The notes: generated by a model from the letters alone, not told the origin. Numbered from the stretch's first letter, positions 16,555 through 49,330 are shown. The stretch is 60,547 nt of DNA from a virus (IMGVR_UViG_3300027112_000001:1-60547); one strand, 5' to 3'. Made by a program: numbers and translations.

Positions 16555-16671
16555 TCACTTGGTTTTCTTTCGTCCGGCACTGGGTCCTCGCTTCCCTAGC
16601 TTCGTGATCTGTAGGTCGCTGCCTTTGACCACGAATCTGTTTGGCTTCTTGGCTTTCTTCTTTTTGCTCAT
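16555..16671 (-). CDS. 38-aa basic peptide translationally coupled to the polyprotein (not in ORF track)
   Basis: ATGA overlap with the polyprotein stop; MSKKKKAKKPNRFVVKGSDLQITKLGKRGPSAGRKKTK. Confidence 0.55.
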   Translation of the reverse strand: MSKKKKAKKPNRFVVKGSDLQITKLGKRGPSAGRKKTK

Positions 16672-19600
16672 AGTAGTGTCACCTGTACGAAATTGGTACC
16701 GTCCTCTTGGTATGTTCCCGTCACCTTGAACTGACTGCCACGAGGCAGCAAGACCTCCGCCTCGCCCCAGTCTAGGAACAAGGCTCGTTTGCCCTTGGGC
16801 ACGGTAATCTGCATCCGGATCGTCTTTCCGAACTGCTTGGCTACACCCGGATCTAGCGTCGTGCTCGTGTATCCATGGTCCACGAACTGATCGCCTGGCT
16901 TCAGTTTCGAGAACACGCTCAGCCCACCGTCGTCAATGCCTCGCACCACTTTGATCTCAGAGCTCAGTGGCGGGGCTTTCGCAAACGCTTTGTCCAGCTT
17001 GTTGATCTCGGTGTCCACCCCAATGCCCAAGTAGTCCTTGGGCTGTGGCTTCTCCCATGTCTCCAACTTTGATTTTCGAAGGTACTCGTTCATCTGTTCA
17101 TGGCCGTCCTCCGAGTACCAACTGACCGCATCATCCACGGAGCTTGTCTTGGTGTACCTCTTCTGCTCCTGAATTAGCTCCTTGCAGCACGGATGGAATC
17201 CCTTGTCGAACGTGCCGACCTTTGCTTTCTCCTTCGGCGGCTCGTCGTCGGCGATCACCTGCTTGCTCTTAAAGTCGATCTCGCGGTTAATCTCCGCTCG
17301 GAGTTTCTTCAGCGAGCTCAGCGTCTCTCCCTCGACCGCCTCGCCTGCCTTGACCTTCTTGATCTTGGCCTTGACTGCGTCGCGGTCCGCTTCCAGCTTG
17401 GCTATTTCCTTCAGCAGCTTCGTCGAACCTTTGGCTGCACCCGCGACAGCCTTCGCTGCCTTCGGTCCGCCCTTCCCGCACGTGGGGTCAACGCCACCGC
17501 CTTTACCAGTTGGGCAGAACGCGAGCTCCAACCCTTCCGGCAGCACCACCGTAGCGTCACGAGCCACGAGGTCCTCCTCGGCGAGGGACACGATCTCGAT
17601 GTCCTGCATCTGGAACTTGTCTCGGCTTAGTATCTCGTCGATGCTTAATTCTTTCATATCTCCCCGCGTCTCTCTGGCCAACGCCAGCATCTCGGTGCCT
17701 AGCTGACCAGCTGGCAGTCCTACGTAATGATCCGGCAATACTTCCGCGTCTATGACTGTGACCACTCCGTGCCCTGGGTGATTAATCTCGTACTTCGCCA
17801 ACACCTTCATCTTCGTGTCCCGAGGCAACAAGAACTCCCGCTCGTAGCCCGAGCCTGGCCCGCCATCCACACTGACATAAGCACCGCGATTGCCCTTCGG
17901 CACCTTAAGATTTATCTTCGTGGCTCCGTTGCCGTACCCAGGTTCTTTCTTCGTGGCGATCGATGTGCTCACGTACCCGCGCTCTAAGAACACATCGCCG
18001 ACCTCCAGCTTTCCTACGACGTTGCCCATCTTACCCGCGTTGCGATGCAGCAGCAAGTCCTCTTTCAGTGGTGGCGATTTGCGAAGAGCCTCATCAATCC
18101 GGATCACCCTGTCGAGGACGTCCGCCTTGACTACGTTGTGTCGTAGGTTGCCGTTAATAGTTTTGTAGCCCGACGAGCAGTAGCTGCCAAGCGCTTGCCG
18201 CTCTTGGAGAGTCAGGTTCTTCACCCACTCACTGTAGTTCTCTTTTGCCCATTCCTGATGTCCGCCATCTTTGAAGTTCTTCGGGCCACCAGGCAGGTAC
18301 GAGCCATCTTCCGCGATGTAATGTGAGATCCCCTTGAGTGGCTTGGCCGGACTCGGCGGTGGCGGGGTCGGTGCTACTGGTGTCAAACCTTTCGGAGCAG
18401 ACGGTGGTGGTGGTAGCGGAGGCTTGCCGATAAACTGCGAAGTCGTGCCAGGCTTGCTCGTGACGACGCCCATCAGTTTGTCGCTGGCCTGCTTCTCGAA
18501 GGCTTTAGCTTTCGCGTTGAGCAGCTTACGCTGCTTCTTCAGGGCACTCAACCCCTTCGTGGTGCCCGTAGCTTTGATTGCCGCGATCTTGGCCGCCACT
18601 CCCTTGGCTTCCGCCTTTGCCACCTTCGCCGACAGACGCAACGCATCTACTTCAGCCTTGAGCTCGGGCGTCATGGCGACGGAGTTTAACCCACCGCTGC
18701 CTCCGCGTCCGCCTCCCGGCGAGCAGCTATTGTCGATGCCTCCGCCTTTGCCCGTAGGACAGAACGCCAAGGACAGACCCACAGGCAAGTACGAGAACTC
18801 GATGCCGTGCTCGGCGTCCTTCATAGCCGCGTTGATTACTTCCTCCACCTGGTCCTCGGGGAACTCGTCCGCGAACTCTGCCTGCCCAGTCATGATCCCA
18901 GTGAAGTGGACCCACGAGTTGCCGTCCTCGTCCTCGCCAGTGCCGCGTGCCTGGAAGCGTAACCGCGTCTCTTCCTGATCGACGCCCAATAACTTTTGTG
19001 TCACGTCGAAGTGCGTAGCCTTGAACGCATCCCACGTGTATAGGTTGCCCTCGTTATCGACCATGCCCCTGAGCGTATCGACCGTACCGCCCTCGGTCAA
19101 CCCCGCGTCGAACTTGGCTCGGATCTTGGCGAGCACTTGCGACATACTCGGGTTGACGTGGATCTTGACCTCTTGGCCGTTGTCGAGCTCGATCGTCTCG
19201 TGGCCGGAGGATGCCTTCCCGCAGGTAGGATCGATGCCACCGCCTTTACCAGTAGCACAAAACGCGAGCTCCAGCCCAGCAGGCAAGAAGCTTAGGGCGA
19301 GCTCCTTCGCCTCCTCGACGAGGTTCTTGTACCGCTGGGTCAGCGTAGTAATCACTGCGTCCGGCACTACGTCCCCAAGCAAGTACGTCAATCTAGCATG
19401 CGGGTCTGCCCCCATCCGAGACCGGAGCGTGTTGATTTGTGCAGCCAGATCCTTGTCTGACAGGCTGCCAAACACTTGGTGGGCGGATGCGTTGCTTCCG
19501 CCATGCCGCATGCTATCGAGCTCGCCCACTGAATTTCCGAAAGCCTTGCCCTTCGGCGAGCCCATTGCTCGAAACGCTAGGGCTCCTCCGTTGTCCAACC

Positions 19601-21410
19601 GGAGCACTTTGCCACTACTGGTCACGCCGATGTTGTCGTGTTCCAGCCCTGCGACATCCCAGTTCGCCAGCCACGCATCGACCACGAAGTTCTTGGATAC
19701 TTCCTCTATTGCCTTCTGGCGAGTGTAACCTTGTAGGTCTCCGAGGGTCTTGACCTTCTCGAACTTGTTGAACACCGCAGCCTTGCCCTCGTACTCGCCG
19801 AGCTTCGTCTCGGGCACGGAGCCAGGGGCGAACGCTTCGTAGAGCTTGTTCGCCGCGTACTCGTTCTTGACGTTCGCTTCCTTGCCTCCGTAGGTCTTCA
19901 TCACGTAGTCGCCATCGCCTTCGATGCGGACCTTCTTGGCTCCGGTGCTGCCGCCTATGTTCGAGTCCAGGACCTTAATCTTGCCTACAGCCTCGGGCAC
20001 GTCCGCTCCGCTAGCGATCTTGGCATCGGCTATCTGCTTGTTCAGCTTCGCTCGCAGCTTCTTCGTTGCCGCTGTGACACCACCCGCTGCTCGCTCCTTC
20101 GCTACCTGCGCCATGAGGTTCGCTTGCTGCACGTAGAGCGAAGCTAGCTGACCGGAGCCTCCGGAGGACGACGAGCAACTGTTGTCGATTCCGCCGCCTT
20201 TACCCGTAGGACAGAACGCGAGCATCAACCCTTCGGGCATCGGGGAGTCTAGCTCGATGCTCGCCGCTACCTGACCAGTACTTACGCTCTCTCGCTTGCC
20301 GAGCGTAGCATACATGAACTCCTCTATCTCCGGCAGCAGCCGCTTGCCGCTGGTGCCGTAGTTCGGGTGCGTTATGGCAGCGAACGACTCAGCGTAGTAC
20401 TCCTTAATGTTGCTCGTTCCGTACTCGGTGAGAGTCTTGGCCGCGTCTTTGCTCTTCTTCCACCGCTTCTGATGGGCCTCGTCTTTGCAGAGCTTCATCT
20501 TCTTGCCCACTATATCCAGGAACTCGCTGCGTTGCTGCTGCGAGAGTGCCTTGTACCAAATCCGATGCCCGAACTCATGCCTGATGACACTCTGCATCCT
20601 GCCACCGCCGATCGTCCAGTGACCGGCTCCTACCCCTGGCGTCGGGGTTTCGGCAATTGGCAAATGCGACATCACCCCGATGTTGTTGTTCAGAGCCCAG
20701 TAGGTGCCGATCGCCGAGCCACCGTTCACGCCATGCCCAGCTTGGCCACTGGACTTCACGTCCGTTACGCGGAACTCGTTTGCTTGGAACGAAAACGTGT
20801 GGACCTTGATCTCGCCCTTCAGATGCTTGTCCACTAACTCGAACTCGTTCGCCGCTCTGTTGATCTCGTTGGCGTAGACCTGAGCTACTTCGACTATGCG
20901 AGACTTGTCTACGCTGCCGCCCTTGGTGAGCGTAGTAGACAACTCGTCCTTGAGGTACTTACTCGCTTCCGCCATCGAGTTGAACTCAACTGCTTCGGGG
21001 CGAGTGCCCTTGGCTCCGAAGGATTTCTTCGGTCCGGCAGGCGGAGCAGGTGGTGCGTCCGGCGGCGAGGCAGGCTTGGGCGGAGCAGGCTTCTTGCCCT
21101 TCGGCGGAGTCTTCGGTGGCAGAGGCTTGCCGGCGAGCTTCGCTTCGAGCTCTGCGATCTTGCTGTTAATCTGTGAGCGTAGCTTCTTCGTGGCACTAGT
21201 CGCGACACCCTTCGGCGAGAGCTTCCGCTCCTCGGCTGCCTTCTTCTGGATCTCTTCCCGCTTCGCGTAGAGCTCGGTGAGCTCCTTCTGTATCGCGAAG
21301 GCATCGCCGTCCCCAGCACTCGCCGCCGAGCCTCCCGGCGAGCACGTAGGATCTATGCCTCCGCCTTTGCCAGTCGGACAGAATGCGAGCTCTAGTCCAG
21401 CAGGTAGCAT
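16668..21410 (-). CDS. 1580-aa modular effector polyprotein: zincin metallopeptidase + HipA/PI3K-like kinase + unknown + two VIP2/Alt-like ADP-ribosyltransferases, each preceded by a repeated tag
   Basis: Peptidase HEFGH...EYYAESF. Kinase GGSTGA..YVMK..NEY..DAWLANWD..N..LDNG. ART1 Y..INGNLR..HR..GYVSTS..EREFLLPR. ART2 MNEYLR..VRG..GYTSTT..EAEVLLPR. Five LxLAFCxTGKGGG[IV]DxxC repeats. Confidence 0.88.
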   Translation of the reverse strand: MLPAGLELAFCPTGKGGGIDPTCSPGGSAASAGDGDAFAIQKELTELYAKREEIQKKAAEERKLSPKGVATSATKKLRSQINSKIAELEAKLAGKPLPPKTPPKGKKPAPPKPASPPDAPPAPPAGPKKSFGAKGTRPEAVEFNSMAEASKYLKDELSTTLTKGGSVDKSRIVEVAQVYANEINRAANEFELVDKHLKGEIKVHTFSFQANEFRVTDVKSSGQAGHGVNGGSAIGTYWALNNNIGVMSHLPIAETPTPGVGAGHWTIGGGRMQSVIRHEFGHRIWYKALSQQQRSEFLDIVGKKMKLCKDEAHQKRWKKSKDAAKTLTEYGTSNIKEYYAESFAAITHPNYGTSGKRLLPEIEEFMYATLGKRESVSTGQVAASIELDSPMPEGLMLAFCPTGKGGGIDNSCSSSSGGSGQLASLYVQQANLMAQVAKERAAGGVTAATKKLRAKLNKQIADAKIASGADVPEAVGKIKVLDSNIGGSTGAKKVRIEGDGDYVMKTYGGKEANVKNEYAANKLYEAFAPGSVPETKLGEYEGKAAVFNKFEKVKTLGDLQGYTRQKAIEEVSKNFVVDAWLANWDVAGLEHDNIGVTSSGKVLRLDNGGALAFRAMGSPKGKAFGNSVGELDSMRHGGSNASAHQVFGSLSDKDLAAQINTLRSRMGADPHARLTYLLGDVVPDAVITTLTQRYKNLVEEAKELALSFLPAGLELAFCATGKGGGIDPTCGKASSGHETIELDNGQEVKIHVNPSMSQVLAKIRAKFDAGLTEGGTVDTLRGMVDNEGNLYTWDAFKATHFDVTQKLLGVDQEETRLRFQARGTGEDEDGNSWVHFTGIMTGQAEFADEFPEDQVEEVINAAMKDAEHGIEFSYLPVGLSLAFCPTGKGGGIDNSCSPGGGRGGSGGLNSVAMTPELKAEVDALRLSAKVAKAEAKGVAAKIAAIKATGTTKGLSALKKQRKLLNAKAKAFEKQASDKLMGVVTSKPGTTSQFIGKPPLPPPPSAPKGLTPVAPTPPPPSPAKPLKGISHYIAEDGSYLPGGPKNFKDGGHQEWAKENYSEWVKNLTLQERQALGSYCSSGYKTINGNLRHNVVKADVLDRVIRIDEALRKSPPLKEDLLLHRNAGKMGNVVGKLEVGDVFLERGYVSTSIATKKEPGYGNGATKINLKVPKGNRGAYVSVDGGPGSGYEREFLLPRDTKMKVLAKYEINHPGHGVVTVIDAEVLPDHYVGLPAGQLGTEMLALARETRGDMKELSIDEILSRDKFQMQDIEIVSLAEEDLVARDATVVLPEGLELAFCPTGKGGGVDPTCGKGGPKAAKAVAGAAKGSTKLLKEIAKLEADRDAVKAKIKKVKAGEAVEGETLSSLKKLRAEINREIDFKSKQVIADDEPPKEKAKVGTFDKGFHPCCKELIQEQKRYTKTSSVDDAVSWYSEDGHEQMNEYLRKSKLETWEKPQPKDYLGIGVDTEINKLDKAFAKAPPLSSEIKVVRGIDDGGLSVFSKLKPGDQFVDHGYTSTTLDPGVAKQFGKTIRMQITVPKGKRALFLDWGEAEVLLPRGSQFKVTGTYQEDGTNFVQVTLL

Positions 21411-22759: not shown

Positions 22760-23752
22760 TCACGGCTCCGTTTTACTTTGCTCACTTGGCTCATCCACGT
22801 AGTGCTTGCTCAAATCTCCACACCAGTTCTTGGGAGCGTTCGGGTCGTGCCAATCATCCTCGTCGAGCTCGCTCACACTATCGAGCTCCGCAGCTGCTTG
22901 AGCTAGTTGCTCCTTCGCCCATGCCTCGCCCGCTGCTCTGAACCTGTCGAGCTCCGCTGCCTCGGCGAGCAACTCCCGGTGCCTCTGCTTGAGCCTGCGT
23001 AGATGCCTCGGCGAGTACTTCTGGGCAGCATCGTAACCAACCGTGCCTATCACTCGTTCGTTGGCCTCGACCTCTTGGATCTCCAAATCTCTCCACTTCC
23101 ACTTATCGGCATGGGCACTCACCTCAACTAGCTGCCGATGCAGATCCTCACCGACCATCGGGAACCACTGAGTAGCGTACGGACGCTTCGTGCCTGGCCC
23201 TGAGTAGTACAGCTTCATCCGCGTATTGGTAGTGTCCACCATGCAGATCCAGGCGTAGTGCCCGCCTGCGTGCAGCTTGCGTCGGTTGTTATCGTTCCAC
23301 TTGCGGCGTAGCGGGTCCTTGCCCTTGAACTCCTGGAAGCGTAACCAGCCGCTCCAGAACGCTCGGTCCTCTGTCGCAGGGATGTGGCCCAACAAGTAGT
23401 GACCAGTCACCCAGTCGGCGTAGCCGCCTAGGTCAGAGATCATGCCCTTGCCGATCTTCGTGGCGTAGTTCTTAGCCTGCTTCTTCTCTGGCTGCTCCTC
23501 TAGCTCTGCGTTGATCGCTCGCTCGATCTCGAACAAATCCACGTACGTCTTCGCCCACTTGGCTCTTGGGTTGACGATCTTCGCCTCGATGGCTGCCAGC
23601 ACATCCCGGCTGGCTCGAATACGCACAGCCAGTCTGATAGTGTTGGTCAGCGTCACCTCCTTGCCCTTGCTCAAGAACGTGACCATCGGGTACTTGGTCC
23701 GCAGCCGCTGCATCTCCGCTAGGTAGTTCTTTTCGTCCATCACATACCCCAC
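22760..23752 (-). CDS. Hypothetical protein
   Basis: 330-aa ORF, last of the middle cluster. Confidence 0.6.
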   Translation of the reverse strand: MGYVMDEKNYLAEMQRLRTKYPMVTFLSKGKEVTLTNTIRLAVRIRASRDVLAAIEAKIVNPRAKWAKTYVDLFEIERAINAELEEQPEKKQAKNYATKIGKGMISDLGGYADWVTGHYLLGHIPATEDRAFWSGWLRFQEFKGKDPLRRKWNDNNRRKLHAGGHYAWICMVDTTNTRMKLYYSGPGTKRPYATQWFPMVGEDLHRQLVEVSAHADKWKWRDLEIQEVEANERVIGTVGYDAAQKYSPRHLRRLKQRHRELLAEAAELDRFRAAGEAWAKEQLAQAAAELDSVSELDEDDWHDPNAPKNWCGDLSKHYVDEPSEQSKTEP

Positions 23753-24660
23753 TTCTTAGGGAACACAAAGTCGTCGGGCCACCGCATCCGCCCGAGGGGA
23801 CTAGGCTTGTACGTCTGCTTAGGTCTGGTCAGAGGCTTGCGGTTGCCTCGTCCCGTCGAGTTGAGCTCCGGCTTGGTCATGCGTAGATACTTGTCGTACT
23901 CGCAGTAGAGATTCTGGACGTCCATCAGGGACAGTGGGTGTCCAGGCAAGACTGGGAACCGATACGCGTGCTGCCCCTCGACGGTCTTCTCCAACGCTTC
24001 GAGTATAGCGTCGTCGTCCCTAAAATGGCAACCACAAACTTTGGCAACGCCACGTCGGCAGCCCGGACCAGGCATGACGAAGTCGTTCTCGTCGAACTGG
24101 AAGAGCTCGGAGTAGTTCAGGTCTGTCGCAAACTGCATCGCGAAGAATGGCCCTAGCATCTTGGTCTGCCACAGCCGCGTGTACAACTGCTCGTACGTCG
24201 GCGACTCCAAGATGTACTTGGCTCGTGTCACTACGTCGTCGATCATCCGCAGGTAGTTGCGGTACTTGTCCGTAAACCCGTACGAGCTCTGCCCGCTGGC
24301 GTATCTGTACGCGGGAGCAAACAGCTTATAACCGCCCTCGTGCTGCTTGAGAACCACATCGTAGTCCTCGCACCAGCCTCGGTAGTGGAACGGCTCGTGG
24401 CCGAGGGCATCGAGCAGGAACTCCCACGTGCTGATCTTGTTGAACGTCTTGAAGAGCAGTATGCGAAACAGTTCGTCCTTGGCGAACTCCGCCCAGCCGA
24501 TCACGTGCTTGATCAGGTACTGCGATACCCTGTCCATCGCTCGATAGCAGTTGGTGAATCTGTACGTCTGCAGCACCGGGTCGTCGGTAGTGCTCGTATA
24601 GAAGAGCTCTTGCCGCTTGATGGCGAACGCCCAAAACCCGTCGTATAGCTCTACACTCAT
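23740..24660 (-). CDS. aGPT-Pplase1 / 5-hmdU DNA kinase helical-domain family protein
   Basis: 'TDDPVLQTYRFTNCYRAMDRVSQYLI..LFRILLFKTFNKISTWE', 'GPFFAMQFATDLNY', 'GPG..RG', 'QNLYCEYDKYLR'. Confidence 0.82.
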   Translation of the reverse strand: MSVELYDGFWAFAIKRQELFYTSTTDDPVLQTYRFTNCYRAMDRVSQYLIKHVIGWAEFAKDELFRILLFKTFNKISTWEFLLDALGHEPFHYRGWCEDYDVVLKQHEGGYKLFAPAYRYASGQSSYGFTDKYRNYLRMIDDVVTRAKYILESPTYEQLYTRLWQTKMLGPFFAMQFATDLNYSELFQFDENDFVMPGPGCRRGVAKVCGCHFRDDDAILEALEKTVEGQHAYRFPVLPGHPLSLMDVQNLYCEYDKYLRMTKPELNSTGRGNRKPLTRPKQTYKPSPLGRMRWPDDFVFPKKWGM

Positions 24661-25673: not shown

Positions 25674-26208
25674 GCTCACTACCTCCCTTAAGTCGGTCGA
25701 ACAGAATAGTAACGGACTCGATGGTCGGGTCCCTACGGACTTTGATCTTCGTGCCACCGGCCACGAGCTCGAACGCTTGCTGCCGTGTAGCATTCAAGCA
25801 CAACCCGTTGCCCAGCGGCACCAGCACATCGCCGACGGCGACCGTCACCCCAGGTGGCAGAGTGGTTGAGGCCAGGCTAGTCACGACGTAGGCGTCGTAC
25901 GGTGGCCCCACCTCGACCTCTATCTCCGGCTCGGTGTACGTGCGGTTGATCAGGATCTTGCCCATGGCGTCTTCCTCCTTGTTAGGTGGCTTAATTTTCA
26001 TGGCGAGGCTGGACTCCAGCGCTTCCATAAAGCTAGGGGTGTACTGCGGGTTATGCTGCCAACCATCGAGCCTCACGATACGGCCAGGCAATATGATCCG
26101 CCCAGCGATGTCCTCGATAGTGCCGAGGTACACATAGTCCTCCGGCTCATCCCGTTTCCGGATATACCGTTCAGCGTGGGCAAAGTTACGAGCCAAGAGG
26201 TACCGCAT
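25660..26208 (-). CDS. Hypothetical protein
   Basis: ORF in operon; internal RBS before MGKILIN. Confidence 0.5.
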   Translation of the reverse strand: MRYLLARNFAHAERYIRKRDEPEDYVYLGTIEDIAGRIILPGRIVRLDGWQHNPQYTPSFMEALESSLAMKIKPPNKEEDAMGKILINRTYTEPEIEVEVGPPYDAYVVTSLASTTLPPGVTVAVGDVLVPLGNGLCLNATRQQAFELVAGGTKIKVRRDPTIESVTILFDRLKGGSEHHGT

Positions 26209-27100
26209 ACTCCACCACGTATTCTTCGAGCCATGGCCGCTTCTTCCGCCATCGCTCTGGGGCTGGTTCGTCTGTCGCCATGAGTATTGGTAGCTTCGTC
26301 TCCTCGGGGATCTGGAAGCACGACAGCCCTAGCTGGGCCCATAGGTGCTCGATGTTCGCTCGCCACCCAAAACAAAAGTCCTCGTACTTGATCCGGATCT
26401 CGTCGCGGTAGTAGTGGTGGGCGAACATGAGTGACGCGTTCAACTGGTTGACTGCTATCTCCGTTAGGGGTCTGCACAACTTCCAGTCCGCGTACCAGCA
26501 CGGCGGCATGTCGAACTTCCACCAGCCTGTGTGCCTGTCTCCCGTCGGTGTCTCGACGTCCACCCATCGGGCCTCAAACGCTCCGTCCTTCTCCCAGCCG
26601 TCGATCAATCCGTTGACTATGGCTCGCGAGTCCCGCTCACACACCACGTACTTGATCTTCGCGTTCGGGTACAGCTGCTCCATGATCCCGCGTCGATAGA
26701 CATCTTGCGGGGTCTTCAGCAATAACGTGTCACGTGGCGAGCGATACGGGTGCCACACGAGTTCTATCTCCGCTGCTGACAAGTAGGGCGGCTCCTCTAT
26801 ATGTTCACGCTGTAGCCACCGGCGGTTCTGCCACGCGGTGATGTCGCATGGCCGCAGTAGCTCGTTGGCAATGCAACTCCGCACGAGCTCCGGGTTGTTG
26901 AGCTCGTGGAACTCATCCGAGTCGTGCCAAGGGTAGCCATTCTGAGCCAGCTTCAGGTAGGGCTCGTGCTCGCCCACCAACTGGCACACGTCCGGGTGCA
27001 GCCCGAGGGCATGCTTGATGATGGTGCTCCCGCTGCGGCTGGGCCCGACCATGCATATGACGGTCTTGGGCTCGTACTTCAGGCTAAGATCCAGCTTCAT
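26186..27100 (-). CDS. Sulfotransferase-family (P-loop) protein
   Basis: 5'-PSB-like 'ICMVGPSRSGSTIIKHALGLHPDV', 'LLLKTP', 3'-PB-like 'YVVCERDSRAIVNGL', 'IKYEDF'. Confidence 0.75.
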   Translation of the reverse strand: MKLDLSLKYEPKTVICMVGPSRSGSTIIKHALGLHPDVCQLVGEHEPYLKLAQNGYPWHDSDEFHELNNPELVRSCIANELLRPCDITAWQNRRWLQREHIEEPPYLSAAEIELVWHPYRSPRDTLLLKTPQDVYRRGIMEQLYPNAKIKYVVCERDSRAIVNGLIDGWEKDGAFEARWVDVETPTGDRHTGWWKFDMPPCWYADWKLCRPLTEIAVNQLNASLMFAHHYYRDEIRIKYEDFCFGWRANIEHLWAQLGLSCFQIPEETKLPILMATDEPAPERWRKKRPWLEEYVVEYAVPLGS

Positions 27101-27854
27101 ACGCGTAATCCTTATCTACGACGCCTACTTCCATATCCCCGACCAACGACGGGTGCCAGTACCACGAGCCGACCAGCTTTCCAAACAGAGGCTTGTCAGC
27201 GGTGTAAGTCTTCACGTGCCCTCGGCGGCTGTGCAGTGGCATCTTGAAGCCTGGCTCGTTGATGTTCACGTCCCGAGGGTGCTTCTTCGTGCCGAGCTTC
27301 AGCTTCAGGACATGGTACTTGAACTCCCAGTCCTTCTGCCGACGAGAGCTAGGGCGAGAGAGTTTGGGTAGCTGCAACGTCTCCGTAGTACCATAGTGCA
27401 CGTTTTGGCATGCGAAGAACTTCAGCAAGTTGAGGATGCTCCACCGCACTACCTCGGCGTCGTGCTCGTCAAACGACATAGTTTTCGGGTAGATCATGAA
27501 TCCCAGAACACCATCTCTAAGCTCGGCGTCGTACTCCGCGTACATGAAACCCCATGGCTCGCTTAAGATCGAGAACGCTATCCCCTTTAGCCCGCTGCGT
27601 GTTCGCTGGATGGTGTACCCCATAGGCATCTTCAGACTGGTGACCTCGATGTAGAGGCAATCGTAGGGCATCGGCAGACCAGTTATCTCCGACATGTGGC
27701 CTTCTTCCGGGAGGATGGGGTAAGGCACGGAGAACTTGTGGAGATCCCGAACGCTTCTCACGCCAGCTTTGTACCCTTCGGGAAAGACAAACGGGAGCTT
27801 GAAGGACCGCAGCGCATTCATGTAGTTCGGAAATAGCTCCTTGGCTCGGCTCAT
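27084..27854 (-). CDS. Conserved phage protein with HxRRGH motif
   Basis: C-terminal 'PLHSRRGHVKTY...WYWHPSLVG'; start refined to MSRAKE. Confidence 0.6.
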   Translation of the reverse strand: MSRAKELFPNYMNALRSFKLPFVFPEGYKAGVRSVRDLHKFSVPYPILPEEGHMSEITGLPMPYDCLYIEVTSLKMPMGYTIQRTRSGLKGIAFSILSEPWGFMYAEYDAELRDGVLGFMIYPKTMSFDEHDAEVVRWSILNLLKFFACQNVHYGTTETLQLPKLSRPSSRRQKDWEFKYHVLKLKLGTKKHPRDVNINEPGFKMPLHSRRGHVKTYTADKPLFGKLVGSWYWHPSLVGDMEVGVVDKDYAYEAGS

Positions 27855-28465
27855 CTTCCCTCCTTCACGATAGCGTAGAAGTCCTCGGGTGCAGTCCGAT
27901 GGTCCAAGACCGTGACGCGTCGCCCTGCCTTCCGGAAGTTCTCTTGGTTGTTCAGGTTCTGCCGATGCAGGTCGCGGCAGTTCTTGTCGTTGAACGGAGC
28001 CAGCTTCTGCCCTGGCTTCAGCTTCTTCGCTCGTCGAGCGAGTATCCTCTCGATGCACACCTCGACTGGCGTGTCCAGGAACAGGAAGTGGACCACCTCG
28101 CGTCCGTAGAGGTTAGCTAGCTGCTGGGCCTGGTTGTTCCATCGGCCGAACGTGCCGCTGACCATGAAGCCTTCGTACAGCACGTGCTTCTGCGGCACCC
28201 AGTCCATGGCCAGGCGGTTGATCAGGGACTCCAGCTGGTCCGTGTTGCCTCGGTGGGCGATGAACCAATCGCACCCGCCACACTGCATGTCGTAGATGCC
28301 GACCGTCCGCAAGTTCAGGTCCGGGACCAGTAATCCCACGGTCTGCTGCCACGCGTCGCCCTCCCGCGTCGGGTCGAGCAGGTCCTGCTGCTCGTGCTTC
28401 TCCAGCATCATGTGGACGCAGTGACTCTTGCCGCTGCCGTTCGTGCCTCGTAGGTTATAGATCAT
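27851..28465 (-). CDS. P-loop nucleotide kinase of the DNA-hypermodification type
   Basis: 'YNLRGTNGSGKS', 'VGIYDMQCGGCD', 'VLYEG', 'FLDTPVEVCIERILARR'. Confidence 0.78.
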   Translation of the reverse strand: MIYNLRGTNGSGKSHCVHMMLEKHEQQDLLDPTREGDAWQQTVGLLVPDLNLRTVGIYDMQCGGCDWFIAHRGNTDQLESLINRLAMDWVPQKHVLYEGFMVSGTFGRWNNQAQQLANLYGREVVHFLFLDTPVEVCIERILARRAKKLKPGQKLAPFNDKNCRDLHRQNLNNQENFRKAGRRVTVLDHRTAPEDFYAIVKEGR

Positions 28466-29387: not shown

Positions 29388-29584
29388 GGTTTAACCTTGT
29401 GCCTCACTAAGACTTCGATGCCCAGGTCCGCCATCGCTTCCTTACGGACCGCGTTCTCTTCGGAGCGTATCTCCGTGCCCTTCCGTCCCATCTGTGCGTT
29501 GACCCTGCCGGTGCTCGGGTACTCGCCGCGTCGCCAGACTTCGACGACCGCCTCGATGATCCGGCGTCTATGCTGTGGTGTCAT
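29384..29584 (-). CDS. Small hypothetical protein (start refined to MTPQHRR)
   Basis: Overlapping stop/start at both ends; GGAG RBS. Confidence 0.45.
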   Translation of the reverse strand: MTPQHRRRIIEAVVEVWRRGEYPSTGRVNAQMGRKGTEIRSEENAVRKEAMADLGIEVLVRHKVKP

Positions 29585-30450
29585 CTCCCCTCCCAAGGCG
29601 CTAGTACGCGTCCCGTTGCTTGGTACACTTTCAAACGGTCCTTGTCGATGCCATGCCATCCCCCGAGCTCGCCCAGCGTGTTCTCTGGGAATACTCGGTG
29701 TCGAATGACCCATAGCTCCGATAGCTTGGAAGCGCATACCGTCTCGCCTGCCAGCATGTCGTCTACTTTGTGAATCCGTCCCTGTTGCCGGTCGATGTTC
29801 CGCCCAGCGTAGAACGTGCCCTTGTTCATGCCAGCCCAGTCGCAGAGCAGGCTCTCGCATTGGGAGACGGAGCACGCCAGGCCTTCGCGGTTCAGCGTTT
29901 GGTGGACCTCGTGGGCGGACTGCTCGGTCGGTGTCAGGCCGAGGAACTCCAGCCCCTGCCTGGGGCCACTGGAGCTCGCTATCTCGAACCGATCCGGCTC
30001 GATGTGGTTAAGGTCGCCCAGGTGCATGAGTAGCTCCGCCGACGTGTACGTGGCCCAGCGGCCATTGCCCCAGACCGACTCGACGAGGTTCAGTAGCTGG
30101 CACCAGTTCTGAGCACCGAGCAGCCAACCGTGCAGCGGTCGCCTAGCGTGGACCTCGTCGAGGTGCTGGTAGATCCTGCCACCGTAGAGATTGCGTCGCT
30201 GCAACTCGATCGGGTACTGCATCAGGCCGCCACCACCACCGTCGGCGAACTGCTTAATGACGAGCCGATCGACAAACGCTAGGTGCGCCGAGGCCTCGTT
30301 GTAGTACGCCATGTAGAGGAAGCCCATGTACACGGACTCCTCGCCACTCATGCCGTTGCAGTACTCCTTCAGGAACGGGATGTGGGCATCGTAGTCGCCC
30401 GTCTCCAGTTGCAGCTTGACGAAGTACAGGAATTTGTCTTGGTTGATCAT
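29581..30450 (-). CDS. Amino acid:DNA transferase (aGPT-Pplase2 family)
   Basis: 'LETGDYD', 'YMAYYN', 'QRR', HhH-like 'WGNGRWATYTSAELL', 'SSGPRQGL', 'ESLLCDW', 'FYAGRNID'. Confidence 0.78.
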   Translation of the reverse strand: MINQDKFLYFVKLQLETGDYDAHIPFLKEYCNGMSGEESVYMGFLYMAYYNEASAHLAFVDRLVIKQFADGGGGGLMQYPIELQRRNLYGGRIYQHLDEVHARRPLHGWLLGAQNWCQLLNLVESVWGNGRWATYTSAELLMHLGDLNHIEPDRFEIASSSGPRQGLEFLGLTPTEQSAHEVHQTLNREGLACSVSQCESLLCDWAGMNKGTFYAGRNIDRQQGRIHKVDDMLAGETVCASKLSELWVIRHRVFPENTLGELGGWHGIDKDRLKVYQATGRVLAPWEGR

Positions 30451-36424: not shown

Positions 36425-38256
36425 GTCTCGTCTCCTGCTTTCTTCGCCGCGAGCCAGTTCTTTGTCGAGACACCTCGACTGCACCGCACCGGGACTCGCA
36501 TCGGTACGCTGCTGTGGTTCAGGATATCGCAGACCGATAGTGCATACTCATCGGCGACGTCGATCGGCACTTCGCTCACGGTCTCGTCGTGCACCAGGGC
36601 GAGGATGTGAGCACCCCACCGCTCTCGCTGCTCGTCGAGCGCGTTGGCTCGGTCCTTCATGTGGTCCGCTGCATGCGACTGGCACACGCGGTTGAACGCG
36701 ACCCGAGCGAACTCGATCGGCATGTGGCATCGCCGCCCATACGCGTTCCTGACATAGCCGCGTTCGCGTGCCGCTGCCTCCGCTGCCCGCGTGTGTGGCT
36801 TGAGCTCGGGCAGCCTGCGGTGAAACTCACCGTGGACCTTGACTGCGATCTCGTAAGCCTTGGTCTTGTCGCCACCCGTAGCCGCCACGATCGACGGGTC
36901 CACTCGCAGCGACGCGATAGTCTTCCGCTTGCCCATGCCGTAGCCCATGGCGAGGTTCAGGATCTTGGCTGCCTTGCGGTCGATCGAGATGCCCAGCGAG
37001 GCCCCGACCTCGTCCGCCATCATTTGGTGGAAGTCCGCGTCCGGGTTGTCGAGGAACGTTTGGACGATCTTCGGGCTATTGATGTAGTGGATGATGTCGC
37101 GGTACTCGATGTTCTTGTAGTCGTGACAAGCGATGGCCCAACCGTCTCTCGGTATGATGAGCTCGCGGGCCTCGTTGTTCATCTGCTGGTTGTTCGGCTG
37201 CGAGCATGACATGCGACCGGACCGCACACACTGGTTGTTGTCGGAGTGCAGCACGCCCTCGACGTTGAGCTCCAGCCACGACTCCCAGAACAGGCTACTC
37301 ATGGTTGTCTCATGGCGGTGGGCGTCGATCAGTCGCAGGATCTCCATCGGAGCCCACGGTATCAGCTTGTACTGCTTCAGCACGTTCTTGTCGAAGCTAG
37401 GCCCCTTCGACTGCACACCCTTCTTCTCGGTGTAGATCGGTGGCAGCCCAAATCTGTTAATGAGCAGATCGTGCATATCCACCGGCGACTTCGGGTTGAC
37501 CTTATAGCCGACGAGGACTTCCAGCTGCTCCTCGTATTGCATCATTCGATAATAAGACCGGAGCAGAGCCTTCTTCGTCCCCTCTACGTCAATCAGCATG
37601 CCGCGTCGCTCGGCTCGGATCAGCGTCTTCGTGAGCCTCTTTTCCGTAGCATACACCGTCGAGCATTCGGCCGGCAGCAGCGACTCCATCTTGGTATGCA
37701 AGACTCGGTTCGCTCGCACCTGGTTACCAGCGTAGTCCGCGAGCACATGCGTCGGGATGTCGCCATAGTCCTTCGTGTTCGTTAGCCAAGCCTGGAGACT
37801 GTTGTAGTAATACGACAGATCGATGCCTGCGAACTCCTTGGCCATGACGTCCAGGCCGTAGCCGCCCTTGTAGGTGCGGTCGCTGTCTACCAGCTTGCAG
37901 AGCGTGAGCGTGTCGCGGTACTCGCCAGCGAAGTCAAACCCGTAGTTATTCCACAGCACATGGGCGTCGTACTTGACGTTCTGGTTGACCCACGCATCGC
38001 TGTTGGCTAGTAGCTCCCTGAGGATTTCAGGCAGCCTACCATCCTCGCGGCTCACGCAGTAGACTTGCGGGCAGTCGTCAAACGTGAACGCCGCGAGGCA
38101 TGGAGTGCAGTTAGCGGTACGCCATGGGTTGAGAGACGTGAGCTTCGGGTCGTTGGAGCTCGTCTCTAGGTCGAGGTACAGCTTCGAGATCCGCTTGGGT
38201 ATCGGCACGAAGTCGAGCTCGGACAGCAACACCACGTTATTGCTTAGCTTCAGCAT
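36421..38256 (-). CDS. polA: Family A DNA polymerase (3'-5' exonuclease + polymerase)
   Basis: Exo YLDLET, NQNVKYD; 'SGRMSCSQPNNQQ'; motif A DYKNIEYR, motif B RKAAKILNLAMGYG, motif C VHDE. Confidence 0.92.
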   Translation of the reverse strand: MLKLSNNVVLLSELDFVPIPKRISKLYLDLETSSNDPKLTSLNPWRTANCTPCLAAFTFDDCPQVYCVSREDGRLPEILRELLANSDAWVNQNVKYDAHVLWNNYGFDFAGEYRDTLTLCKLVDSDRTYKGGYGLDVMAKEFAGIDLSYYYNSLQAWLTNTKDYGDIPTHVLADYAGNQVRANRVLHTKMESLLPAECSTVYATEKRLTKTLIRAERRGMLIDVEGTKKALLRSYYRMMQYEEQLEVLVGYKVNPKSPVDMHDLLINRFGLPPIYTEKKGVQSKGPSFDKNVLKQYKLIPWAPMEILRLIDAHRHETTMSSLFWESWLELNVEGVLHSDNNQCVRSGRMSCSQPNNQQMNNEARELIIPRDGWAIACHDYKNIEYRDIIHYINSPKIVQTFLDNPDADFHQMMADEVGASLGISIDRKAAKILNLAMGYGMGKRKTIASLRVDPSIVAATGGDKTKAYEIAVKVHGEFHRRLPELKPHTRAAEAAARERGYVRNAYGRRCHMPIEFARVAFNRVCQSHAADHMKDRANALDEQRERWGAHILALVHDETVSEVPIDVADEYALSVCDILNHSSVPMRVPVRCSRGVSTKNWLAAKKAGDET

Positions 38257-38729
38257 ATGCCCTTCGCGTTACTGGGTTGGCTCGGAGCCATGTTAGGGTC
38301 TCGCAGCCCGAGCTCCGCGTCGTCGGGGATGTCGAGCCACACTATGTTCATCCCGCAATTGACAAGGACCTTTACTCCCTCGGCTCCTGGCTCTGACTGG
38401 TCCAGGATGTAGACCGTGCGGATCCTGCCGCGTTTCCAGTTGACCATCGCCGTGGCACACGGCACGCATGGTGCCCTCGTCACGATCATCAGGCACGAGG
38501 TCATCGACCGCTCGACGCCGTTCAGCAAGGTGTTGATCTCGCTGTGAGCACAACCGCAGTTGTCTTTTACTCCGGAGCAGCCTGCCCGCGTGCCGTTCAC
38601 TCCCCAGCCGACCACTTGGTGGTTCGACTCTTGCAGGATGATGGCCGCCACGCCGCGTCGCTTGCACGTGGAGTGCTTAGCTAGCCTTCGGGTCAGTCTC
38701 GCGAAGTCCTCAATTAGTTCCCTGCTCAT
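38250..38729 (-). CDS. dCMP deaminase-like protein
   Basis: 'STCKRRGVAAII', HSE, 'APCVPC' zinc motifs. Confidence 0.85.
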   Translation of the reverse strand: MSRELIEDFARLTRRLAKHSTCKRRGVAAIILQESNHQVVGWGVNGTRAGCSGVKDNCGCAHSEINTLLNGVERSMTSCLMIVTRAPCVPCATAMVNWKRGRIRTVYILDQSEPGAEGVKVLVNCGMNIVWLDIPDDAELGLRDPNMAPSQPSNAKGIC

Positions 38730-39669
38730 ATTGCTCCTTCGTTTTGGTTAGGTGCCGCAGCATCGCGTGCCGCAGCCCAGGTGCTCGAATCTCTTCCCAC
38801 ACTACATCGGGGTACCACTTCCGGCAGCAGCATATCACCGCGTCGCCCAGCACGCTGGAGATGATCTTGCCTTGTGGCTTGAACCCCAGCATGCGGTACG
38901 AGCGCTCTGTCGCCAGCGCTGAGTCTAGCTCTTCCTCGCTCCAGTAGCCTGCGCCTGGGTGGTACGGCTCGAACGTGGTACGAGGCACTGGCAGTGCCTC
39001 CTTCGCCTTCTCCACATCCCGCTCGTACAGATGCAACGAGCCAGCGAAGTGGTGGTAGTCGCCAGCCGTCACACCGAGCCTCGCCGCCACGTACCTCTGT
39101 ATAACCGTGTTGACATAGCAATCGTAGAGGAAGCCCTTCCACAGATCGTTCGACCGCATCGAGCAGACCATGTGCAGCCGCTCGCCGCGCAGGAGGAACT
39201 GCCACGTGAGGGTGCAAGGGATATCCCGATTGCTGGCAACCAGGTCGTCTGGTCGCCACAGCGACACCACGCACTTCTTCGTGGTGCCCCGCTCGCTGAG
39301 CTTGAACACTGCCTCGTCCAGCAGGTCTGGAGCATAGGGTGCCCCAGCTGGCACGCGAAGGTTATTGGCCAGTCGCCCACCGTATGCCCCGTAAGCTCTG
39401 CCGCCCTCACAGAACTGCTTGTACTGCGGAGCGTACGCACAGATCATACTGGCATCGTGGGTCCTCGACAAGTACCACAGGAGCTCCGCCGACGCATAGA
39501 TCGGCGAGAGCTTCCGTCTCTCGTTGAGACAGAACTGCTCCATCGAGCCATCGAGGACCACGTGGGCCCCGATGATCTCGCGGATGCTGTCCTGCTGCGC
39601 GTCAGTCTTTGGTGACAGCAGCGCGTTGTCCAACAGCCTTCCCCACACTTGGTCGATATGAAAAGACAC
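38710..39669 (-). CDS. Thymidylate-synthase-family pyrimidine (hydroxy)methylase
   Basis: 'AELLWYL', 'GAYGGR', 'RDIPCT', 'MRSNDLWKGFLYD', 'GSLHLYE'. Confidence 0.88.
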   Translation of the reverse strand: MSFHIDQVWGRLLDNALLSPKTDAQQDSIREIIGAHVVLDGSMEQFCLNERRKLSPIYASAELLWYLSRTHDASMICAYAPQYKQFCEGGRAYGAYGGRLANNLRVPAGAPYAPDLLDEAVFKLSERGTTKKCVVSLWRPDDLVASNRDIPCTLTWQFLLRGERLHMVCSMRSNDLWKGFLYDCYVNTVIQRYVAARLGVTAGDYHHFAGSLHLYERDVEKAKEALPVPRTTFEPYHPGAGYWSEEELDSALATERSYRMLGFKPQGKIISSVLGDAVICCCRKWYPDVVWEEIRAPGLRHAMLRHLTKTKEQYEQGTN

Positions 39670-46809: not shown

Positions 46810-47682
46810 CTATGCGGATATTTTCCCCAAAATCTTTTCCAAAACGACTGTGTGCGCCGTTTTTGGGGTTATTTTCTCTGCTCCAGGAATCGCATCGGTG
46901 CCCGCGACAACCGCAAACGGACCTGCGAGAGCGCATGCGCGGAGCACATCGCGTGCCCAAGATGCGTTTGGCTTCTGCAACTGGAACTTGAACTGAGGCT
47001 CGGGCAGCTTCAGTTTTCCGATGCCCGATACGCGAACCTTCCGGTAGCCGATCTTCTTGATCTCCGCCATCTTCTGCGTGCCGGTTTCACCCGACTTTGT
47101 CCCGAACCAGTTTGCTCGGCGTTCACCCTGATGGACCAAACGGAATCCCAGATCCTTCCGCTTGGGCCGAGGCCATAGGTCTGTGAAGTTCGCGTCGTAG
47201 CTGCCGGCATGCGGGTAGCACACGTCGAAGATCGGCCACCGCCACGTCTGTGGGGCCGAGGTGTGCCACAAATGAAAGTAGCCGTAGGGATACAGCGGTG
47301 CCTCGTCCATGCGAGCTCCGCCCTCGTCGTAGCGGTACGCTCCGTTGAGGCAGTCCGGTCGTGCTTTCTGCGATGCGACTGCCCGCCAGTTCTTCGGCGG
47401 GATGATGTCGCTGTCGAAGTGCAGGCACCAGTCGATAGGCTCCAGCTTGCCGTACGCGACGCACAACCCGGCACCCTTGTTGAAGTACGCACCGTAGTCC
47501 GTGAACACCTCGGTCGTGACGATACGTAGATTCGACTGTCCAGTGTCTAGCGACAGAGCCTCGTCGTCAGGCCTCGTCACGATGACCAGTGAGTCCAGCG
47601 TGTCCAGCCAGATCGGTAAGGACTTCTTCAGTTGTGGCGTGTACACATCGCCGGAGCAGCTTGTGATCGCGTCAATTCTCAT
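46810..47682 (-). CDS. GT-A-like glycosyltransferase
   Basis: 'FNKGAGL', DxD 'HFDSDII', 'GYFHLWH', 'AGSYD..F'. Confidence 0.68.
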   Translation of the reverse strand: MRIDAITSCSGDVYTPQLKKSLPIWLDTLDSLVIVTRPDDEALSLDTGQSNLRIVTTEVFTDYGAYFNKGAGLCVAYGKLEPIDWCLHFDSDIIPPKNWRAVASQKARPDCLNGAYRYDEGGARMDEAPLYPYGYFHLWHTSAPQTWRWPIFDVCYPHAGSYDANFTDLWPRPKRKDLGFRLVHQGERRANWFGTKSGETGTQKMAEIKKIGYRKVRVSGIGKLKLPEPQFKFQLQKPNASWARDVLRACALAGPFAVVAGTDAIPGAEKITPKTAHTVVLEKILGKISA

Positions 47683-48362
47683 AGTGGCTTCCTAGCTAAG
47701 AGATACATGAAGTTTTCGCGGTCGTTCAATCGTGCGGTCGAGAAGCGATGCACCTCGAAGCCTACTTGGGCTAACACATGCCGCAACGAGGCCTCGTTGA
47801 AGAACCATAGGTGATCGGGGTTGGTCTGGTCCTCGTCGTCGGGGACTATGATGTACAACCAGCCGCCTGGCTTCAGCAGCGCTCGTACTCGCAGCAGTGC
47901 CTTCGGGGCGTCTTTGACGTGCTCCAACACATGGGCCATCAACACGAGCTCCAGCTTCCCATCGCCGGTGTCACAGCAATCCGGGAACACTCCCGCGATA
48001 GTGTGGACCCCATACTCGTTGTGCGTGTAGTTCGCCGCCCAGGGGTCTTCGTCCACGCCGATGTAGGTGTAACCCGCGCTACGGATCAGGTTGACATACG
48101 GGCTGACTCCGCAGCCGATCTCCAACGCGTATGCCCCTTCGGTCGTAGCAGTCTTTAGCTCCCCGAAGCTTTCTGTGAACTGAGTGAGATAGCTCGCTGG
48201 CAGCACGACACCAGCCTCTGAGAGCACCCCGAGAGACTCGTAGTAGGCGTGCCCAGGCGGGTGCTTGGCCTTGTACTCCACATGGTACGGGCACTTGATA
48301 GTATTGTGCATCACGCCCCAGCGAAGGTCCAACTCGTTCACGCAGCCACAGCTGTACATCAT
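47679..48362 (-). CDS. Class I SAM-dependent methyltransferase
   Basis: 'LEIGCG', 'GVD', 'HVLEHV', 'LLKPGGWLYIIVP', 'HLWFF'. Confidence 0.88.
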   Translation of the reverse strand: MMYSCGCVNELDLRWGVMHNTIKCPYHVEYKAKHPPGHAYYESLGVLSEAGVVLPASYLTQFTESFGELKTATTEGAYALEIGCGVSPYVNLIRSAGYTYIGVDEDPWAANYTHNEYGVHTIAGVFPDCCDTGDGKLELVLMAHVLEHVKDAPKALLRVRALLKPGGWLYIIVPDDEDQTNPDHLWFFNEASLRHVLAQVGFEVHRFSTARLNDRENFMYLLARKPL

Positions 48363-49330
48363 AGAACACTATTCTCTATGTAGTTGGTCGCCCGCTCCAA
48401 GTGCTTACCGTCGTCGATCTGGATCAAGTCCACGCGACGATTAGGCTTCTTGGGTTTGTAGATATCCTGGTGCGTCACAGACACCTCTTCAGCTTGGTGC
48501 TCGCCCACCGCCAACTGACCGTAACGACGCAGCGGTATGCCGCACGCATGGCAGTACTTGTCCACCTGCGCCCCGTAGTCGGCCATGGGGCGACGCCACC
48601 ACCCAGGTACAGCTTCGAGGCCCAGGTCCGGCCAACTAGGGTCAGCCGCGTGTAGCATGGCCTGGGCTCCGGCTAGCTCGCAGAAGAACGCTCGCAGACC
48701 CTTCCCCGGCACGTGGCACAGCATAGCCGACCAGAACTGGTTCACGTCGCAAGTGGAGATCAGCTTCCACCGATCCTCCTCGGAGATGCCTACGTCCTGC
48801 ATGGCCACGAACGGCGGACTGTGACGACCCGGCTTGCCGTTGTGCCCTTTGAGGTATGGCTTGCACTCGGGCCAGTCCTTAGCGAACTCGTCGTAGGCAG
48901 CCTGCACCATGTGCACGTTGAGGTTACTGACCGCTGGGTTGAAGACCCGACGCATGATGCTACCCTTGCCTAGCGGGTTATTGCACCACAGACCGCGTTG
49001 AGCGTAGGGAAAGTGTTTGCACAGGACGTTGCATAGCTCCTCGAACTTCGGGTGGCTGGCAGGGTTGCCACCGAAGAAGCCAACGACGCCGAAGTAGCCT
49101 TCGATGCTACGACACGCTTCCTCCATCTGCTCGACAGAGATCATCGCTGGCTTGCCGGCGAGGTTACTGCCCTGTGTGCAGCTGAAGCACGCTAGGTCGC
49201 AGCCTCGGGTGATGTGGATCTGTATCACTCCGCCTCGCCAGATGCCGTGGCGGACATCGTACGGCGACTTCATTTTGTCGAGGCACTCTTGCCGCTGCAT
49301 TCGAAGCTCCTCCATTGCTCTGCGACCCAT
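48359..49330 (-). CDS. Radical SAM protein with C-terminal auxiliary Cys residues
   Basis: CDLACFSC (CxxxCxxC), 'FGGNPASHP', later C...FCE...CHAC. Confidence 0.85.
   Translation of the reverse strand: MGRRAMEELRMQRQECLDKMKSPYDVRHGIWRGGVIQIHITRGCDLACFSCTQGSNLAGKPAMISVEQMEEACRSIEGYFGVVGFFGGNPASHPKFEELCNVLCKHFPYAQRGLWCNNPLGKGSIMRRVFNPAVSNLNVHMVQAAYDEFAKDWPECKPYLKGHNGKPGRHSPPFVAMQDVGISEEDRWKLISTCDVNQFWSAMLCHVPGKGLRAFFCELAGAQAMLHAADPSWPDLGLEAVPGWWRRPMADYGAQVDKYCHACGIPLRRYGQLAVGEHQAEEVSVTHQDIYKPKKPNRRVDLIQIDDGKHLERATNYIENSVL

Follow-up and report, generated by a model that had tools for sequence, protein, structure and literature searches.

What does a gene of the sulfotransferase fold do inside a phage DNA-hypermodification cluster? 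The question is posed by a 60,547-nucleotide stretch of an uncultured virus (IMGVR_UViG_3300027112_000001, recorded as a complete phage genome of 60.5 kb), referred to here in its whole length as the window, where a 304-aa protein of this fold is encoded at 26186-27100. A first-pass annotation had called the gene sulfotransferase-like and suggested a modified base as its target; the most informative feature of the locus, an obligate pairing with a guanidino-group hydrolase, is absent from that annotation. The sulfotransferase and the guanidino hydrolase form a strict pair, newly recognised here. The reading that we prefer, with a probability of about one half, is that the protein is a cytoplasmic sulfotransferase, most likely using 3'-phosphoadenosine 5'-phosphosulfate (PAPS), and one half of a two-enzyme unit that serves as an optional tailoring cassette on 5-hydroxymethyl-pyrimidine clusters.

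The sulfotransferase and its guanidino-hydrolase partner

Related loci were found in viral (12), metagenomic (41) and genomic (18) records, and 26 were scanned by Pfam, tblastn or profiles (11 viral, L011 being a repeat of L010, 9 metagenomic and 6 genomic). In 24 of the 26 scanned loci, as in the window, a guanidino hydrolase gene adjoins the sulfotransferase gene or lies within three genes of it (viral 11/11, metagenomic 8/9, genomic 5/6), and the two loci without a partner (L018 and L058) are on truncated contigs, whose ends are at most 0.9 kb away from the sulfotransferase gene. The partner has the pentein fold of dimethylarginine dimethylaminohydrolase (DDAH) and arginine deiminase (ADI) in most loci and an arginase fold instead in five (L002, L003, L033, L055 and L056). 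Because two unrelated folds occupy the same place, the activity that is needed appears to be hydrolysis of a guanidino group. The DDAH-like partners keep C234, H142, E89, R64 and R108 invariant, including residues that we take to be binders of a free amino-acid carboxylate, and their family profile gives a full-length match to Pseudomonas aeruginosa DDAH (E 4e-28). An exhaustive representative search additionally returned a natural fusion, P0209 (766 aa), in which a Sulfotransfer_3 domain is joined to an ADI/DDAH-like domain; a word-indexed search for longer fused forms returned none. A separate long protein, P0158 (873 aa), carries its sulfotransferase after about 475 residues without a Pfam match.

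The pairing was also seen from the opposite direction, starting from the amino acid:DNA transferase (ADDT) that is encoded near the pair in the window. Of 47 viral records in which a relative of this ADDT is encoded, six have a sulfotransferase and exactly those six have a guanidino hydrolase (five DDAH-like, one arginase-fold), the remaining 41 having neither; among the records that are at least 90% complete, two carry both genes and 12 carry neither. If the records were independent, the chance of such an overlap would be 1 in C(47,6) = 10,737,573 (computed by hand), a value that sets no more than a ceiling on how strong the evidence is, as the records are not independent and the query alignment was built from sulfotransferase-linked ADDTs. 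The sulfotransferase/hydrolase cassette is optional among ADDT clusters (6/47).

The identification of the gene as sulfotransferase-like was upheld. Its open reading frame (ORF) has an ATG start with AAGGA 8 nt upstream, and it is beyond chance because it has 82 homologues in a word-indexed set of 5.8 billion proteins (none with an informative name), 386 representatives at E<=1e-3 in an exhaustive search of 1.84 billion, and 48 invariant columns across 36 close homologues (alignment A1). The protein matches PF13469 (Sulfotransfer_3) over residues 15-164 with 37.1 bits (E 5.3e-9), above the gathering cut-off of 27, as do the homologues from other loci, and the 50 best solved-structure matches to its high-confidence predicted structure are sulfotransferases only. 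Sequence inspection found no hydrophobic N-terminal stretch or signal peptide, in agreement with the first-pass annotation. No PHROG matches the sulfotransferase and no NCBIfam model names it.

The residues expected of a sulfotransferase active site were traced by alignment (Table 1). R22 of the 5'-phosphosulfate-binding (PSB) loop, E44, K129 and R156 are invariant both in the 36 close homologues and in 18 sequences drawn from phage as well as bacterial members (alignment A6), and in the latter G24 and S25 of the loop are invariant as well. From its spacing after the PSB loop, E44 is presumably the catalytic Glu of sulfotransferases, a candidate assignment. The segment R156-DSRAIVNG aligns with the 3'-phosphate motif of tyrosylprotein sulfotransferases, the Arg of that motif being R156, and is continued by a signature of the clade in which N163, G164, L165, D167, G168 and W169 are, like R156, invariant across alignment A6.

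Genomic context in the window and elsewhere

The sulfotransferase gene is linked to DNA-hypermodification clusters repeatedly, in unrelated phage contigs. An ADDT gene lies within about 3 kb of it in the window and in L001, L002, L003, L007, L008, L015, L018, L021, L033 and L068, and thymidylate synthase (TS)-like or TET genes are present in L004-L007, L009, L010, L021, L025, L031, L034 and L046. The neighbourhood analysis therefore bears out the earlier assignment of the gene to a DNA-modification cluster as opposed to glycan or tail genes, its homologues being linked to DNA-modification genes and not to glycan genes alone.

Three architectures were distinguished. In type A, kinase parts, the sulfotransferase, ADDT and the guanidino hydrolase occur together, in an order that varies: ADDT, ADI-like, P-loop kinase, sulfotransferase and PF18723 in L015; PF18723, sulfotransferase, ADDT and arginase-fold in L003 and L033; and ParB-like, TET/JBP, P-loop kinase, sulfotransferase, ADI-like and ADDT in L007, with variants in L008, L001, L021, L016 and L068. 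On the 188-kb phage contig of L008, the ADDT, sulfotransferase and DDAH-like genes have an S-adenosylmethionine decarboxylase gene (L008:7364-7711) 0.8 kb upstream of them, which hints at polyamine chemistry near the cassette.

Type B comprises ten loci in larger phages (L004-L006, L009, L025, L031, L034 and L046, with L010 and L012 similar), where the order is a guanylate-kinase-like gene, an unknown gene, a small P-loop kinase, a sulfotransferase of 400-446 aa, an ADI/DDAH-like gene, a gene for a protein of about 302 aa, an APH-type kinase and a TS-like gene. The ~302-aa protein was considered as a divergent ADDT and ruled out (hhalign probability 0.2%); it is weakly similar to thymidylate synthase and CMP hydroxymethylase (E 0.007). 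With this similarity it represents a second, highly divergent protein of the thymidylate-synthase fold in the type B clusters (L004:11981-12952, L005:12117-13025 and six more; alignment A2), where its gene neighbours the ordinary TS-like gene, the APH-type kinase and the guanylate-kinase-like gene, suggesting a nucleotide-level route of modification.

Type C is bacterial. In Solimicrobium and Rugamonas (L055 and L056), the sulfotransferase is grouped with a HemK-like methyltransferase and an arginase-fold protein, and L066 and L072 have the sulfotransferase with an ADI/DDAH-like gene. ADDT is missing from 15 of the 16 genomes of the type C set, the exception (L068) looking like a phage contig. 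On the Oxalobacteraceae chromosomes, the HemK/PrmC-like methyltransferase, the sulfotransferase homologue and the arginase-fold gene form an apparent operon (L055:7189-9982; L056:7234-10021).

In the window itself, the genes run on one strand in the order ADDT, DDAH/ADI-like, a 68-aa ORF, P-loop kinase, an inserted ORF, sulfotransferase, a 182-aa ORF, a VRR-NUC nuclease, a 147-aa ORF and PF18723, so that the sulfotransferase gene does lie, as first described, between the P-loop kinase and the aGPT-Pplase1 gene. The window ADDT is 49% identical to its orthologue in L001, which adjoins the sulfotransferase there. The P-loop kinase keeps the Walker A motif G-x4-GK[ST], and its orthologue in L003 (41% identical) passes PF18748 with 49.7 bits (E 4e-13). 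The possibility that this kinase is an adenylyl-sulfate (APS) kinase was ruled out, as the window kinase and its counterparts have no PF01583 match at E<=1e-3. The dCMP deaminase and TS-family genes adjoin a family A DNA polymerase whose identity to any deposited phage does not exceed 30%, and the deaminase and the TS-family protein are the likely source of 5-hydroxymethyl-dUMP, the TS-family protein putatively acting as the hydroxymethylase.

Table 1. Positions of the pair, its active-site residues, neighbouring pathway genes and the APS kinase genes of two related phage contigs
Feature	Position	Strand	Basis or remark
Sulfotransferase-fold gene, 304 aa	26186..27100	-	small undescribed clade within PF13469
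Residues G19-T26 (GPSRSGST), PSB loop with R22	27023..27046	-	aligned with PSB loop of TPST1 and NDST
E44, candidate catalytic base, G-E-x-E-P-Y motif	26969..26971	-	invariant in A1 (36) and A6 (18)
K129 (L-K-T-P-Q), second basic catalytic-site residue	26714..26716	-	aligned with Lys of TPST 'NKDP'; invariant
R156...N163-G164-L-x-D167-G-W169, clade signature at site of 3'-phosphate-binding motif	26594..26635	-	alignment to TPST RDGRASVHS
DDAH/ADI-like pentein-fold guanidino hydrolase, 241 aa	28662..29387	-	PF02274, E 4e-8
Amino acid:DNA transferase, PF18724 ADDT (former aGPT-Pplase2)	29581..30450	-	27.9 bits, cut-off 26.2
P-loop kinase, 5-hmdU DNA kinase-like	27851..28465	-	PF18748, E 3.6e-5, 23.8 bits, below cut-off 27
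PF18723 HMUDK_hel (former aGPT-Pplase1)	23740..24660	-	E 3.3e-62
dCMP deaminase	38250-38729	-	PF00383, E 2e-13
Thymidylate-synthase-family protein	38710-39669	-	PF00303, E 1.4e-19
Adenylyl-sulfate kinase genes	L073:1429-2382; L074:1420-2079		one on each of two large phage contigs, together with the sulfotransferase cassette

Further genes of the window were noted. The inserted ORF (27084-27857, minus strand) resembles AcrVA2-like clusters of the ESM Atlas (feature score 0.97), where PF26125 is found on 15-32% of members in the best three listed clusters, and it matches phrog_20769; it is probably outside the pathway because the other loci lack it at this position. Directly downstream of the terminase and portal genes, a 1580-aa protein is encoded (16668-21410, minus strand) with two ADP-ribosyltransferase domains (PF03496, E 2e-46, and a C-terminal PF01129) and with about five copies, spread over its length, of a motif of the form L-P-x-G-L-x-L-A-F-C-P-T-G-K-G-G-G-I-D; it is possibly a virion protein that is ejected. 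Distant from the main cluster, neighbouring genes encode a radical SAM protein and a class I methyltransferase (47679-49330, minus strand for both), and these could be additional base-modification genes.

A proposed pathway and its alternatives

In the pathway that we propose, 5-hydroxymethyldeoxyuridine (5-hmdU) would enter DNA by the TS-like hydroxymethylase route and would be phosphorylated there by the P-loop kinase with the PF18723 protein, after which ADDT would append an arginine-type amino acid. The DDAH-like enzyme would then trim or unmask the guanidino group, which may serve as a masked amine or ureido group, and the sulfotransferase would place sulfate on the appended side chain, by N-sulfonation of the unmasked amine or by O-sulfonation, to give a sulfated hypermodified thymidine. 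The data directly show the family, the fold, the conserved catalytic-site residues, the gene linkage, the fusion and the APS kinase genes of two related phages; the identities of donor and acceptor, the choice of arginine for the appended amino acid and the sequence of the steps are inferred. Since bacteria without hydroxymethyl-pyrimidine genes have the pair too, its chemistry is probably centred on a guanidino compound, and an arginine-derived moiety is the more likely acceptor. Sulfation of the hydroxymethyl group, which the first-pass annotation had put forward, is shown by nothing in these data; an amino group, the other target it had suggested, may be sulfated.

The sulfate donor was approached through APS kinase, the enzyme that makes PAPS. 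Two of the 13 viral records that have the sulfotransferase encode it clearly (E 8e-74 and 1e-72; NCBIfam 286 bits versus 163), both of them fragments (42% and 31% complete), and in bacterial locus L066 its gene lies 3 kb from the sulfotransferase homologue; the same query found APS kinase in only five of 50,697 deposited phage records, one of which is a Salmonella contig. Because APS kinase occurs in these two related viral records and near the L066 homologue, PAPS is supported as the donor, and it is most likely the donor of the window enzyme also.

Several observations weigh against the proposed pathway. The motifs originally described as PAPS-binding-like do exist: the PSB loop and the R156 motif align with those of TPST, in pairwise alignments to solved sulfotransferases that are weak (E about 0.7). 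The Ser found eight residues past the Arg in the 3'-phosphate motif is Gly (G164) in 18/18 sequences of alignment A6 and in at least 90% of the rows of alignment A1. Binding of PAPS is not assured because this replacement is clade-wide; the invariant N163 might stand in for the missing Ser. The profile of the 36 close homologues also matched nothing at E<=0.1 among the sequences of solved structures. Overall, the protein has the sulfotransferase fold and most of the catalytic apparatus and lacks one PAPS-binding feature. Additionally, the whole window genome has no PF01583 match, and ATP sulfurylase (PF01747) was found in none of the 13 viral records, so that the phage would depend on PAPS from its host. 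The 26 scanned loci are not phylogenetically independent, and neither the window form nor the type B form has a homologue in the 50,697 deposited phage records; with no cultured phage carrying the gene, the DNA chemistry proposed here would be without a known example. The pair is present without ADDT or PF18723 in the ten type B phage loci and in bacteria beside a HemK-like methyltransferase; nothing intrinsic thus ties it to DNA, and a free metabolite could be its acceptor. Finally, a Wzy_C neighbour gives L066 a glycan-like context, and in L021 the sulfotransferase gene neighbours a TET-associated glycosyltransferase.

The main rival, although unlikely in our estimate, is chemically attractive. 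Sulfotransferases of the activating kind (the CurM ST type and retinol dehydratase) add sulfate in order that it be eliminated or displaced, and DDAH cleaves N-omega-substituted arginines such as methylarginines; a 5-hydroxymethyl group in DNA or on a nucleotide might accordingly be sulfated as a leaving group, displaced by a guanidino nitrogen of arginine and then cleaved by the DDAH-like enzyme, releasing citrulline and leaving a 5-aminomethyl-pyrimidine (or a ureidomethyl group with the arginase-fold version). Such a route would account for the type B loci that lack ADDT. It is countered by the ADDT loci that have the gene, all of which keep kinase parts (the kinase and/or PF18723), so that activation would be duplicated; by the 41 of 47 related ADDT records that do without a sulfotransferase; and by the bacterial pairs, near which no hydroxymethylase is found. 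We also know of no sulfotransferase that acts on DNA. The earlier suggestion of sulfate as an alternative leaving group to phosphate is disfavoured on the same grounds. Quite unlikely, in turn, is that the pair acts on a free small molecule (arginine or a relative), turning it into an amine that is sulfated or otherwise altered and is either the nucleophile for ADDT or an unrelated metabolite. The chromosomal pairs accompanied only by a methyltransferase (L055 and L056), the carboxylate-binding residues presumed in the DDAH-like enzyme and the optional nature of the cassette (6/47) would suit this explanation; in the phages, the genes overlap or abut the kinase and ADDT genes as one operon, and no transporter or other small-molecule genes are found nearby, both of which speak against it.

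Two further alternatives are given very little weight. The fold may have been kept while another nucleotide, or a nucleotide of DNA, is bound instead of PAPS, the protein having some other chemistry or acting as a scaffold only. The clade-wide loss of the 3'-phosphate-binding Ser, the clade-specific N-G-L-x-D-G-W motif and the lack of a significant sequence match to solved sulfotransferases point in that direction, and the invariant Arg of the PSB loop, the invariant Glu and Lys, and the APS kinase genes in two related phages and L066 point away from it, leaving it very improbable. Least probable of those weighed here is a modifier of proteins or glycans, whether directed to tyrosine or arginine on host or virion proteins or to polysaccharide. 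A glycan target had been raised as a caveat in the first-pass annotation, and it retains the single scanned locus with Wzy_C (L066); the other 25 of the 26 have no glycan-assembly genes, a signal peptide is lacking, and in phages the gene as a rule accompanies nucleotide and DNA-modification genes.

Under the preferred reading of a paired tailoring cassette, we suggest, tentatively and at somewhat less than even odds, that the phages carrying it make an undescribed DNA base, a thymidine (in type B another hydroxymethyl-pyrimidine) with a sulfated or sulfamated arginine-derived side chain, and that the pair is portable chemistry shared with bacteria. If this is true, a nucleobase that bears sulfate or sulfamate would be known from a genome for the first time. 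To our knowledge, the known thymidine hypermodifications are all neutral or cationic; a sulfated thymidine would place extra negative charge in the major groove and widen natural DNA chemistry. Hypermodifications of phage DNA defeat restriction and CRISPR nucleases and are a source of DNA-labelling enzymes, and a DNA-directed or DNA-pathway sulfotransferase would, if confirmed, join that toolbox. The strict pairing also offers a testable function for an unnamed pair of bacterial genes. With its few, apparently soluble components, the system is open to reconstitution in vitro on 5-hmdU DNA.

Comparison with known systems

The window cluster shares with the thymidine hypermodification systems of phages M6, ViI, PaMx11, SP10 and PhiW-14 (PMC5889632, PMC8989533) a framework of PF18723 and PF18724 proteins, a P-loop kinase of the 5-hmdU DNA kinase type and tailoring genes in a cluster, together with a putative source of 5-hmdU. 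The tailoring enzymes described for thymidine in PMC8989533 are radical SAM isomerases, PLP (pyridoxal phosphate) decarboxylases, flavin lyases and acetyltransferases, with amidoligase and glutamine amidotransferase domains also noted; the window cluster differs in having a sulfotransferase and a guanidino hydrolase as tailoring genes. The word 'sulfotransferase' has no mention in Lee et al. 2018 (PMC5889632) or in the main text of Lee et al. 2021 (PMC8989533), nor have 'deiminase', 'amidinotransferase' and 'arginine' in the latter main text, and 'sulfotransferase', 'deiminase' and 'amidinotransferase' are likewise absent from the main text of a 2026 T-dioxygenase paper (PMC13229309). Nothing relevant came from full-text literature searches for sulfotransferase together with hypermodification, with DNA modification in phages or with DDAH, a mention in supplements or figures still being possible.

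Compared with PAPS-dependent sulfotransferases (Stf9/Stf1, TPST1/2, CurM and olefin-synthase ST domains, NDST and 3-OST), the window protein has 12-19% identity and no significant sequence match, and its clade is set apart by the replaced 3'-phosphate Ser, by its own motif and by a basic C-terminal R-W-x-x-K-R-P-W-L. The partner family, at about 20-25% identity for most members and with an arginase-fold substitute in five loci, compares with P. aeruginosa DDAH (3rhy, 1h70) through its full-length profile match, and the window partner keeps the Cys, His and acidic residues. The nearest likenesses to the pair as a unit, in kind of activity, come from small-molecule pathways of actinomycetes. A sulfotransferase and an amidinohydrolase both tailor clethramycin in the clethramycin/mediomycin pathway (PMC5704753), their genes being non-adjacent, and the sulfotransferase and amidinotransferase AcmK/AcmN of ascamycin are proposed, not proven, to build its sulfamate (PMC9113183). 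In these systems, as would be the case for the window pair, a PAPS sulfotransferase and a guanidino- or amidino-directed enzyme work on one arginine-derived or nucleoside scaffold.
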